The position numbers and the translations under genes are program-made. Shown here piece after piece: positions 26,719 to 27,228 of a stretch of DNA of 34,836 nt. Source of the DNA: an uncultured Planctomycetales bacterium (lineage in GTDB: Bacteria > Omnitrophota > Gorgyraeia > Zapsychrales > Fredricksoniimonadaceae); the NCBI GenBank assembly GCA_964400365.1, contig CAYNTZ010000002.1:1-34836 (forward strand), in the 5' to 3' direction. Under the pieces are notes generated by a model. The model worked only from the letters and a program-made list of their open reading frames with translations. It did not search any database and was not told where the DNA came from. How positions within the stretch are numbered: the stretch's first letter is position 1; each line of letters opens with the position of its first letter.

Positions 26719-27009
26719 ATGTATACAGTGTATGCGTTAAAGTCAGACAAAGATCAGCGAATATATGTGGGCATGTCACAGGATGTTTTAAAAAGGTTAA
26801 AAGAGCATAATAGGGGGCAAACCACATCAACGAAGCCATATAGACCTTGGAGAATTCTCCATGTTGAATATTTTAATACAAGACTTGAAGCTAGATTAAT
26901 TGAAAAGAAATGGAAGTCAGGGAGTGGTAAAGAATATCTAAAGAATTTGAATAATGTCCCTGTAGCTCAGTTGGATAGAGCAACAGCCTTCAATAAGGAG
27001 CCTTTATAG
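26719..27009 (+). CDS. Small GIY-YIG nuclease-domain protein (UPF0213/COG2827-like)
   Basis: MYTVYALKSDKDQRIYVGMSQDVLKRLKEHNRGQ..RPWRILHVEYFNTRLEARLIEKKWKSGSGKEYL matches the GIY..YVG..R..H..E GIY-YIG core. The ATG follows the duplicated exon end CCTT directly. The reading frame runs through the real tRNA-Arg 5' exon and stops 19 nt into the intron. Confidence 0.75.
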   Translation: MYTVYALKSDKDQRIYVGMSQDVLKRLKEHNRGQTTSTKPYRPWRILHVEYFNTRLEARLIEKKWKSGSGKEYLKNLNNVPVAQLDRATAFNKEPL

Positions 27010-27228
27010 GGAATAAGAACCTATGAAGTGAACGTCGCTAATTCGGTGAACCCCCTTTTTAACTAGGGCAACACCGAGCTACCTTGCAATATAAGGGAGT
27101 GTAGAGACTTTACACGACGGGGCTGAAATGCCTAAGAGAAAGTCCGGCCAGCAAGCCGTAAGGTGGTCAGGGTAACCTGATGCTGGATGCTAAGCTGTGG
27201 GTCGCACGTTCGATTCGTGCCAGGGACG
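26956..27228 (+). tRNA. tRNA-Arg (anticodon TCT) interrupted by a group I intron between positions 34 and 35
   Basis: The 5' exon is GTCCCTGTAGCTCAGTTGGATAGAGCAACAGCCTT (26956-90). The 3' exon is CTAAGCTGTGGGTCGCACGTTCGATTCGTGCCAGGGACG (27190-228). Joined, they give a 74-nt cloverleaf with anticodon loop CTTCTAA. As I remember it, this is nearly collinear with E. coli argU. A T-run follows the 3' end. Confidence 0.85.
26991..27189 (+). ncRNA. Group I self-splicing intron (IC3-like, ORF-less, 199 nt)
   Basis: Core pairings are visible by eye:
- P2 TATAGG/CCTATG
- P3 CGTCG (27033-37)/CGACG (27115-19)
- P4 TTCGGTG/CACCGAG
- P6 CTACCTT/AAGGGAG
- P7 GACTTT (27106-11)/AAAGTC (27139-44), within an R-like GTAGAGACTTTACACGACGG and an S-like TAAGAGAAAGTCCGG
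- P8 GGGC/GCCT
- P9 CCAGCA/TGCTGG, enclosing a GTAA-tetraloop hairpin

The terminal G is at 27189. From memory, it is very similar to the Azoarcus tRNA-Ile and cyanobacterial tRNA-Leu introns. Confidence 0.8.

Follow-up and report, generated by a model that had tools for sequence, protein, structure and literature searches.

The stretch of DNA considered here (the window; positions 1 to 34,836 of the forward strand of contig CAYNTZ010000002.1, assembly GCA_964400365.1, from an uncultured bacterium) carries a tRNA-Arg(UCU) gene that is interrupted in its anticodon loop by an insert without an open reading frame (ORF). The structure of the insert and of its relatives identifies it, with very high confidence, as a group I intron and a member of a family of introns in this tRNA gene, called Arg(UCU) introns below. 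Nuclease genes lie on both sides of this ORF-less intron, as an original prediction made from the sequence alone had stated: a PD-(D/E)XK gene (PF11645) is located downstream of the tRNA and is followed by tRNA-His(GUG), and a mini GIY-YIG ORF (PF01541) is located upstream, directly after a duplicated part of the tRNA 5′ exon (the pseudo-5′ exon). The features of the locus are listed in Table 1, in which nucleotide i of the intron is window position 26990+i.

Table 1. Features of the interrupted tRNA-Arg(UCU) locus (window positions, unless another locus is named).
Feature	Position	Strand	Basis or detail
Sigma-70-like promoter candidate	26592..26620	+	TTTACA-17-TAGGAT, TG before −10; consensus match only
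Pseudo-5′ exon	26641..26718	+	Direct repeats; ends ...GCCTT, the intron insertion position
Mini GIY-YIG nuclease ORF	26719..27009	+	Pfam PF01541, 3.3e-14; begins directly after pseudo-exon
tRNA-Arg(UCU) 5′ exon, nt 1–34, last base U34	26956..26990	+	Spliced-product call; exon stems covary across loci
Group I intron (predicted), 199 nt, without ORF	26991..27189	+	Structure and covariation, weak RF00028 match, core model, fold
P1	26988–26991/26997–27000	+	C-3 U-2 U-1 C1 with G7 G8 A9 G10; loop AAUAA; U-1:G8 wobble
P2	27002–27010/27020–27028	+	9 bp; loop GAAUAAGAA (9 nt, A-rich)
Catalytic core, P3 to P7′	27029..27147	+	Match to model R1, model positions 1–126 of 126
P3	27033–27037/27115–27119	+	CGUCG/CGACG
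P4	27043–27048/27072–27077	+	UCGGUG/CACCGA
P5	27053–27056/27065–27068	+	CCCU/AGGG
P6	27078–27080/27098–27100	+	GCU/AGU
P6a	27082–27085/27093–27096	+	CCUU/AAGG
P7	27104,27106–27110/27140–27145	+	G[A]GACUU/AAGUCC
P8	27120–27123/27130–27133	+	GGGC/GCCU; loop UGAAAU
P9	27148–27152/27182–27186	+	CCAGC/GCUGG; encloses P9a and P9b
P9a	27155–27157/27162–27164	+	GUAA loop
P9b	27167–27171/27176–27180	+	GUAA loop
Intron 3′ end AUG, omega-G	27189	+	G directly before C35
tRNA-Arg(UCU) 3′ exon, C35 to discriminator G	27190..27228	+	Spliced-product call; CCA not encoded
PD-(D/E)XK nuclease gene (I-Ssp6803I family), 136 aa	27254..27664	+	PF11645; outside intron, 25 nt past tRNA 3′ end
tRNA-His(GUG)	27753..27828	+	ARAGORN/Rfam; conserved downstream neighbor of the tRNA-Arg/nuclease module
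Intrinsic-terminator-like hairpin and T-run	27846..27876	+	Consensus match; first one downstream of module
GIY-YIG cassette loci	Window 26641–26955; L001 5416–5705; L252 1426–1800; L253 476–936; L254 887–1358; L097 1533–1580

The exon halves of 26956–27228, joined after removal of 199 nt, are called as tRNA-Arg(tct) by ARAGORN; alternative cut points or insert lengths give a different anticodon or no tRNA. The insert lies between U34 (26990) and C35, its last base is G27189, and the mature loop is CUUCUAA, so that the exon assignment, loop and insertion point of the original prediction are confirmed base by base. The unspliced gene is missed in the intact window by both ARAGORN and the Rfam tRNA model. 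Across the same 34/35 site, an intron-less tRNA-Arg(UCU) allele would read …GAGCAACAGCCTTCTAAGCTGTGGG…. All tRNA stems of the window gene are canonical and intact, and in the exons, compensatory substitutions between loci affect the acceptor, anticodon, and T stems.

Lack of an Rfam RF00028 match above threshold had been proposed as grounds for rejecting the intron, and at the gathering threshold (50 bits) the window contains none; a local search gives 22.6 bits (E=0.0012) and covers only 26980–27158. Independent evidence was therefore needed for the window copy. As a test, the threshold is too strict: the aligned relatives L147 (61.4 bits) and L129 (58.1 bits) pass it. The Rfam Intron_gpI seed included no bacterial introns, according to a preprint by Williams (Williams KP, bioRxiv 2020, doi 10.1101/2020.01.27.920355; hereafter Williams, 2020), and the low score of the window intron is due to the model rather than the sequence.

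Relatives were gathered from the contigs of homologues of the downstream nuclease and with two scans for DNA patterns that span the 5′ exon/P1 junction; all totals are lower bounds. The same junction occurs at at least 131 loci. The insert was delimited in 103 of those collected, and in all of these except L232 and L234 the joined exons are called as tRNA-Arg(tct). The terminal G was a search criterion in the relatives and holds by construction. A scan of genome contigs with a pattern ending in GGAG yielded five real introns, in other phyla; the other 115 of the 120 matches listed are intron-less tRNA-Val, tRNA-Arg, or tRNA-Lys genes. The inserts fall into two size classes, 191–350 nt without an ORF and about 565–720 nt with one.

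For a covariation test, 41 distinct ORF-less members were aligned with MAFFT and the hand-drawn P1–P9 structure of the window intron was projected on the alignment. Standard pairs occupy 90.9% of the cells, compared with 36–45% when the 3′ partners are slid by 1–3 columns, and both sides change in 44 of the 58 pairs. The covariation score is 0.595 against 0.222 for shuffled alignments (0 of 500 shuffles reach 0.595). P2, P3, P4, P7, P8, P9, and P9b are 94–100% paired across the 41 members (P3, 94%; P4, 95%; P7, 99.6%; P8, 100%), with double changes in 5/5 pairs of P3, 5/6 of P4, 2/6 of P7, and 3/4 of P8, a pattern that supports the predicted P3/P7 pseudoknot of Arg(UCU) introns. Weakness is confined to the inner P5 pairs, P6a, and P9a; these belong to loops of variable length, for which MAFFT is unreliable. 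All 41 members keep the splice-site U:G pair, and the fourth P1 pair is C:G in 33 of them and U:G in the other 8; P1 is mostly invariant and so offers limited covariation support. The strings GUAGAG[A]CU... and AAGAGAAAGUCC, which comprise P7 with its bulged A, J6/7, and J8/7, are conserved in the family.

A covariance model of the core (R1; P3 to P7′, 126 positions), built from 22 other Arg(UCU) introns with the window copy and its whole subgroup excluded, matches the window at 89.9 bits (E~3e-20). This is its sole match in 34.8 kb, and no non-canonical pairs are flagged. In single-sequence folding, the insert is stabler than all 200 shuffles (z=−3.07), and P1, P2, P4, P5, P8, and P9b are recovered. 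The predicted group I intron at this position is thus upheld by the covariation and by the core model. Another structured insertion, for example a miniature inverted-repeat transposable element (MITE) or a different class of ribozyme, would share with these data only a weak Rfam score, the sole point in its favor, and merits almost no credence: covariation backs the P1–P9 topology with its pseudoknot, the J6/7–P7 (GUAGAGACU) and J8/7–P7′ (AAGAnAnAGUCC) strings are conserved with the bulged A included, the splice-site U:G and the terminal G are both there, relatives exceed the RF00028 cutoff, and the core resembles those of Azoarcus and further seeds in the alignment of Williams.

Every intron element listed in the original prediction (P2–P9, GNRA loops in the P9 extensions, and the terminal G) was found. 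For P1, the proposed U:G pair at the splice site stands, whereas the proposed register, GCCUU with GGAGC, is displaced by one position and would bring in an invariant C:A mismatch; the register given in Table 1 is backed by the family alignment and by the seed alignment of Williams. The window intron appears to be of the bacterial-tRNA, IC3-like type. This label is used because, by eye, its core strings match those of the Azoarcus tRNA-Ile intron and other bacterial tRNA introns in that seed alignment; the preprint assigns all four classical types of bacterial tRNA intron to IC3 (Williams, 2020).

We consider it highly probable, from the conservation of its sequence and structure, that the intron is spliced in vivo and that the tRNA is functional. 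The precursor would fold into P1–P9, and exogenous guanosine would attack after U34, held as a U:G wobble in the 4-bp P1 (exon CUU and intron C with GGAG). G27189 would then take the G-site in P7, and exon ligation would produce a 74-nt tRNA to which CCA is added afterwards. Alternatively, the gene might be a dead copy with a decaying intron, a second intact tRNA-Arg(UCU) gene serving the cell. The sub-threshold RF00028 score would fit such a copy, and the search for a second gene, in which ARAGORN found none, was confined to the 34.8-kb window. Decay is very improbable, however, given that 58/58 modeled intron pairs and every tRNA stem are canonical and that over 100 loci retain the interrupted gene, whose exons and intron alike show compensatory substitutions. 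A complete 1.14-Mb Omnitrophota genome (L002) also carries the interrupted gene, and between the window and its close relative L001 identity is 90.7% for the module that runs from the GIY-YIG gene to tRNA-His, as against 78.9% for the flanking genes. In such genomes, Rfam and ARAGORN leave the possibly sole AGA-decoding tRNA unannotated because the RF00028 threshold misses real bacterial tRNA introns.

The tRNA-Arg(UCU) setting itself is not new. The original prediction had called for a database check of the UCU host, and the rarity implied for it does not hold: in the preprint, bacterial tRNA intron settings are raised from 4 (Leu.3Ug, Arg.5Ug, fMet.2Ug, Ile2.5Ug) to 21, and “Arg.3Ug” is among the 17 new ones, with the seed “Rba190.Arg.3Ug” having the P1 CUUC-AAUA-GGAG and a core much like that of the window intron (Williams, 2020). 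The window intron lies in tRNA-Arg after anticodon-loop nucleotide 3, with U at −1 and omega-G, as Arg.3Ug is defined, and is a further member of this catalogued class. Arg(UCU) introns are found in Omnitrophota (L001–L003), Elusimicrobiota (L092), Planctomycetia (L075), Acidobacteriota/Blastocatellia (L105), and Gammaproteobacteria/Woeseiaceae (L013), in the Bacillota isolate Melghirimyces profundicolus DSM 45787 (L076), and in more than 100 metagenome contigs. Nothing on tRNA introns of Omnitrophota was found in the literature searched. As a separate observation, three putative viral contigs in IMG/VR (L255, L256, L257; 57–128 kb) carry a tRNA-Arg(UCU) gene with a version of the intron of about 600 nt, in which an HNH-type-like ORF occupies the P2 loop; the neighboring genes are tRNA-Leu(UAA) or tRNA-Cys. 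Phages may spread the Arg(UCU) intron between phyla.

Nuclease ORFs of several kinds occur within Arg(UCU) introns. Besides the PD-(D/E)XK ORFs described below, HNH_3 ORFs are located in the P2 loop (L127, L145, L186; Pfam 4.9e-12) and LAGLIDADG ORFs in P6 (L136, L151, L167; at the Pfam cutoff), and L172 and L188 have an antisense ORF with HNH-like motifs and without a Pfam match. The intron-encoded PD-(D/E)XK ORFs of L092 and L155 contain in-frame stops and look like decaying homing-endonuclease genes, as the homing cycle predicts. The intron of L003 (5849–6515), which has the nuclease inside and a P4 of UGCAAG, has P1–P2 and the P9 stem and 3′ end (CCAGCAA...GCUGGAUG) in common with the window subtype, whereas its P3–P8 core differs. 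Arg(UCU) introns are therefore mosaic, which suggests recombination of intron lineages at one site. A single site in one tRNA hosts two or more intron core lineages and, in different loops, three or four nuclease families that are unrelated to one another, and in several lineages also a nuclease gene outside the intron, which makes it a compact natural system for the association, separation, and recombination of introns and homing endonucleases.

The nuclease gene downstream of the window tRNA begins with TTG, with GGGAG 8 nt upstream. Its protein scores 102.2 bits against PF11645 (cutoff 26.1), and no NCBIfam model matches it. Residues 2–103 match PDB 2OST (E=7.7e-5), which is I-Ssp6803I, a homing endonuclease from the tRNA-fMet intron of Synechocystis, and the catalytic D (FDLV/YDLV)...QVK is aligned. 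Of 262 homologues, those with a named source are almost all from metagenome-assembled genomes of Omnitrophota, and some are named “group I intron-associated PD-(D/E)XK endonuclease.” The gene is intact; between the window and L001, it has 36 synonymous and 11 non-synonymous differences (omega 0.06) and is therefore maintained, under purifying selection.

Two layouts of this nuclease are seen. The ORF is inside the intron, in the P6 loop, in L002, L003/4/5, L092, L246/7, and about 40 metagenome loci, where it is followed by the remainder of the intron and the 3′ exon. It is outside in the window, L001 (=L203), L182 (=L248/L249), and L250/L251, and in each of these the intron is ORF-less. The gap between the tRNA 3′ end and the ORF is 25 nt in the window, 24 in L001, 8 in L182, and 12 in L250/L251, and tRNA-His follows. 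The outside layout is not an assembly artefact, because the loci come from independent assemblies. The homologues of L182 and L250 have ATG at the codon matching the TTG of the window, and no obvious ribosome-binding site precedes these two ORFs. Processing of the tRNA 3′ end would, with gaps of 8–25 nt, yield an almost leaderless nuclease mRNA.

All four outside lineages have one intron subtype with a P4 of UCGGUG (89–93% identity for L182 and L001; L250 was assigned by eye). Most inside loci have another core, with a P4 of UGCAAG, and share P1–P2. Neighbor-joining trees nest the outside nucleases within intron-encoded ones, and the nearest relative of the window nuclease besides L001 is the intron-encoded copy of L003 (77%), from a moderately related host (PtsP 66.7% identical). 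Bootstrap values are 84% for L182 with L250, 60% for the window with L001 and L003 (inside), and 10% for all outside copies together, the last too low to decide whether the outside nucleases are monophyletic; with support this low, the trees are compatible with more than one direction and number of relocations. The free-standing position could be ancestral, with the window at a pre-invasion stage, as the published model of collaborative homing would have it (PMC3984707). The association of outside copies with UCGGUG-P4 cores, and of most inside copies with UGCAAG-P4 cores, agrees with such an order of events; the placement of the outside copies, with low neighbor-joining support, deep in a clade whose remaining members, like the outgroups, are without exception intron-encoded makes it unlikely. 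Separately, AAAGGCGTTTCAGTCTAGCGCTGTGGATA after the nuclease stop codon was considered as a degraded intron 3′ half (TCAGAGACUA...GCUGGAUG), which would leave the nuclease as all that survives of a second, decayed tRNA-Arg copy. This idea is unsupported, though not disproved: the two sequences resemble each other weakly, L182 and L250 show no such resemblance, and no second match to the core model occurs in the window.

The layout at the window is that of collaborative, or trans, homing, in which an ORF-less intron is accompanied by a free-standing nuclease gene beside the interrupted gene, and it recurs in four sequence-distinct lineages; the nuclease gene is not within the intron it would mobilize, its ORF being past the tRNA. 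Homology to the intron-encoded copies makes it plausible, at somewhat short of an even chance, that the PD-(D/E)XK nuclease acts in homing on intron-less alleles. In such a cycle, the likeliest reading of the arrangement, the nuclease gene of the window lineage, probably co-transcribed with the tRNA, would supply an enzyme for cleavage of tRNA-Arg(UCU) alleles without the intron, at the site in the anticodon loop. By splitting this target, the resident intron would shield its own chromosome, and repair would copy the intron and nuclease gene as one. A contending explanation, possible on these data yet doubtful, is that the downstream nuclease gene is domesticated or simply stranded, kept for a host function or only very recently immobilized, and that the intron is a fixed, immobile passenger. 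Most ORF-less introns of the window subtype have no adjacent PD-(D/E)XK gene, the layout with tRNA-His is kept in four lineages and selection is strongly purifying (omega 0.06, window against L001), both of which a domesticated gene would show, and the failure of NCBIfam models to match the protein points the same way. On the other hand, the protein has 60–78% identity with many copies encoded by introns of this same tRNA gene, among which it is nested, its catalytic D...QVK motif is retained in alignment with I-Ssp6803I, and the gene always adjoins the gene into which its relatives home.

The pseudo-5′ exon upstream of the tRNA consists of two exact repeats of tRNA sequence. Positions 26641–26661 (AAT and tRNA nt 1–18) equal 26953–26973 (21/21), and 26706–26718 (tRNA nt 22–34) equal 26978–26990 (13/13). 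Between them, in the D-loop, are a 20-nt hairpin insert (26662–26681), GATA, and a perfect 20-nt palindrome, CCTGCCTGCCGGCAGGCAGG (26686–26705); in L001 the palindrome is present without the second 20-nt hairpin. The GIY-YIG domain of the adjoining ORF ends by about 26955, and its homologues have 78–80 aa. Lacking its own stop codon, the ORF runs through the tRNA 5′ exon and P1 to a TAG in P2, as it does in L001, so that an RNase P cut at the tRNA 5′ end would release a GIY-YIG mRNA without a stop codon. The ratio of non-synonymous to synonymous rates (dN/dS) relative to L001 is 0.17. The protein is a lone 79-aa catalytic domain without a DNA-binding domain and belongs to PF01541 only; against TIGR01453 (I-TevI-like) it scores 18.2 bits (cutoff 56), over the N-terminal 33 residues. 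Because L182, L250, and L003 lack the gene, it is a later insertion in the lineage of the window and L001. The cassette would have arrived separately from the intron and its nuclease, and would now stand between the old promoter and the tRNA.

Equivalent arrangements are found at other tRNA-Arg genes. In Mangrovibacterium marinum (L252), a 61%-identical gene lies between a 5′ copy of tRNA-Arg(CCU), with CCTGCCTGCGGTAGGCAGG after GGATA, and the intact tRNA. At tRNA-Arg(CCG), a Bacteroidota metagenome contig (L253) has an equivalent design that includes two palindromes; the order in L254 is an intron-less tRNA-Arg(UCU), a GIY-YIG gene, and another tRNA copy in which the palindrome is identical; and L097, from Peribacteria, has a 5′ fragment of tRNA-Arg(UCG) with CCTGCCTACCGGTAGGCAGG and no ORF. 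The read-through tails of other GIY-YIG homologues translate tRNA 5′ ends or the palindrome. The common parts are a duplicated tRNA 5′ part with a D-loop CCTGCC...GGCAGG palindrome, usually after GGATA, an ORF of about 79 aa, and an intact tRNA; the palindrome-bearing extra copy is usually truncated, and the ORF often reads into the tRNA. These arrangements, found in Omnitrophota, Bacteroidota, and Peribacteria at tRNA-Arg genes for UCU, CCU, and CCG, with the ORF-less fragment at UCG, look like a recurrent tRNA-Arg-associated mini-GIY-YIG cassette that spares the tRNA by duplication of its 5′ part. Integration or homing through homology to the tRNA 5′ part, the palindrome marking the copy carried by the element, is a formal possibility. 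No description of a GIY-YIG/tRNA/palindrome cassette was found in the literature searched, and the D-loop/palindrome junction has 0 matches in viral contigs. If its mobility is confirmed, the cassette would represent a new mode of parasitizing tRNA genes without inactivating them.

Two further kinds of repeat were seen near tRNA genes. In L254 (640–885), about five repeats around the palindrome GTCAGGCCYGCCTGAC, similar in flavor to the D-loop palindrome, lie between another GIY-YIG gene and the intron-less tRNA-Arg(UCU). Long hairpins in which a copy of the first 13–14 nt of the tRNA precedes a spacer and then the reverse complement, as one unit or as two in tandem, occur upstream of tRNA genes at L184 13–65, L246 ~2230–2330, L247 (two tandem units), and L238 ~3310–3400 (tRNA-Pro); these may be insertion footprints or leader structures.

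The promoter candidate upstream of the pseudo-exon, the only + strand sigma-70-like site reported for the module, is possibly the original tRNA promoter. There is no terminator-like site on the + strand between this candidate and 27846, and the next one is located past tRNA-His, an arrangement that would be compatible with a single transcript across all five elements. A search of a phage collection with 2.5 kb around the locus matched tRNA-His only, and the locus is therefore not regarded as part of a phage. Two inverted repeats (I3, I4) that bracket the module are 14–15 nt long and 86–87% complementary and were treated as chance. After tRNA-His, about 3.5 kb (window ~27830–31300) has a GC content of 0.38 against ~0.46 and contains a Fic/DOC gene, a 351-aa ORF without a Pfam match, and two small overlapping toxin–antitoxin-like ORFs. 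The counterpart in L001 (6607–8010) holds a major facilitator superfamily (MFS) transporter gene, and synteny resumes at ~31307; the segment looks like a small island beside the tRNA cluster.

Taken together, the locus is in all likelihood a functional tRNA gene with a group I intron that lacks an ORF, arranged as for trans or collaborative homing and later joined by a GIY-YIG insertion. Several observations weigh against this reading: besides the RF00028 results and the low bootstrap values, an intron-less second tRNA-Arg(UCU) copy is possible outside the 34.8-kb window, the promoter and terminator were matched by consensus and such matches are as frequent in the region as chance predicts, and many introns of the window type have no nuclease gene nearby, from which it follows that the intron is independent of the nuclease. 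Interest for follow-up lies in the context, namely the homing-nuclease gene outside the intron in several lineages and the recurrent GIY-YIG/palindrome cassette. Only tentatively can two propositions be advanced jointly, namely that the nuclease has left, or has not yet entered, the intron and cooperates in trans with an intron that has no ORF and belongs to a different core lineage at the same tRNA site, and that the cassette represents an undescribed selfish class specific for tRNA-Arg genes. If true, the locus would be a living intermediate, on a bacterial chromosome, in the life cycle of introns and endonucleases, of which only phage examples have been documented so far.

Among known systems, the closest to the intron is Arg.3Ug, with which it has the host tRNA type, the insertion point between CUU and C, U-1, and omega-G in common, along with a P1 of CUUC/GGAG with a 4–5-nt loop and the core strings AAUUCGGnGAA, GUAGAGACU, and AAGnGAnAGUCC. 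The window copy is shorter (199 nt) and AT-richer and comes from another lineage, probably Omnitrophota, to judge from the source names of the nuclease homologues and from synteny with L001 and L003; nuclease genes outside introns are not discussed in the preprint (Williams, 2020). The IC3 introns of Azoarcus tRNA-Ile(CAU) and cyanobacterial tRNA-Leu(UAA) are likewise small, ORF-less anticodon-loop introns of about 200–250 nt that are self-splicing, as is predicted for the window intron. The Leu intron is inserted at the same 34/35 site, and the Azoarcus seed (Aol6.Ile2.5Ug) has P4, J6/7–P7, and J8/7 strings in common with the window intron. Both have other host tRNAs, the Azoarcus intron lies 3′ of the anticodon, and the periphery of the window intron differs in its 9-bp P2 with a 9-nt A-rich loop and its P9 around two GUAA hairpins.

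For the downstream nuclease, the nearest counterpart is I-Ssp6803I of the Synechocystis tRNA-fMet intron (Bonocora and Shub, 2001, as cited in PMC3984707). In both systems, a nuclease of the PF11645 family is associated with a group I intron that interrupts the anticodon loop of a tRNA, and most relatives of the window nuclease are intron-encoded, as I-Ssp6803I is; the window gene differs in its position outside the intron, its tRNA-Arg(UCU) host, and its low sequence identity. Collaborative or trans homing has been described for the psbA intron of cyanophage S-PM2 with the free-standing F-CphI and for T4 mobE with I-TevIII (PMC3984707). Those are phage protein-coding genes with other nuclease families, whereas the window presents a bacterial chromosomal tRNA gene, and its nuclease, which would target the insertion site, appears to be derived from intron-encoded ancestors. 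The nearest precedent for the upstream cassette is T4 SegB (PMC2330249), the product of a free-standing GIY-YIG gene among tRNA genes, from which the window protein differs in being a catalytic domain of 79 aa without a DNA-binding domain, and its gene in being flanked by a duplicated tRNA 5′ part with a conserved D-loop palindrome.

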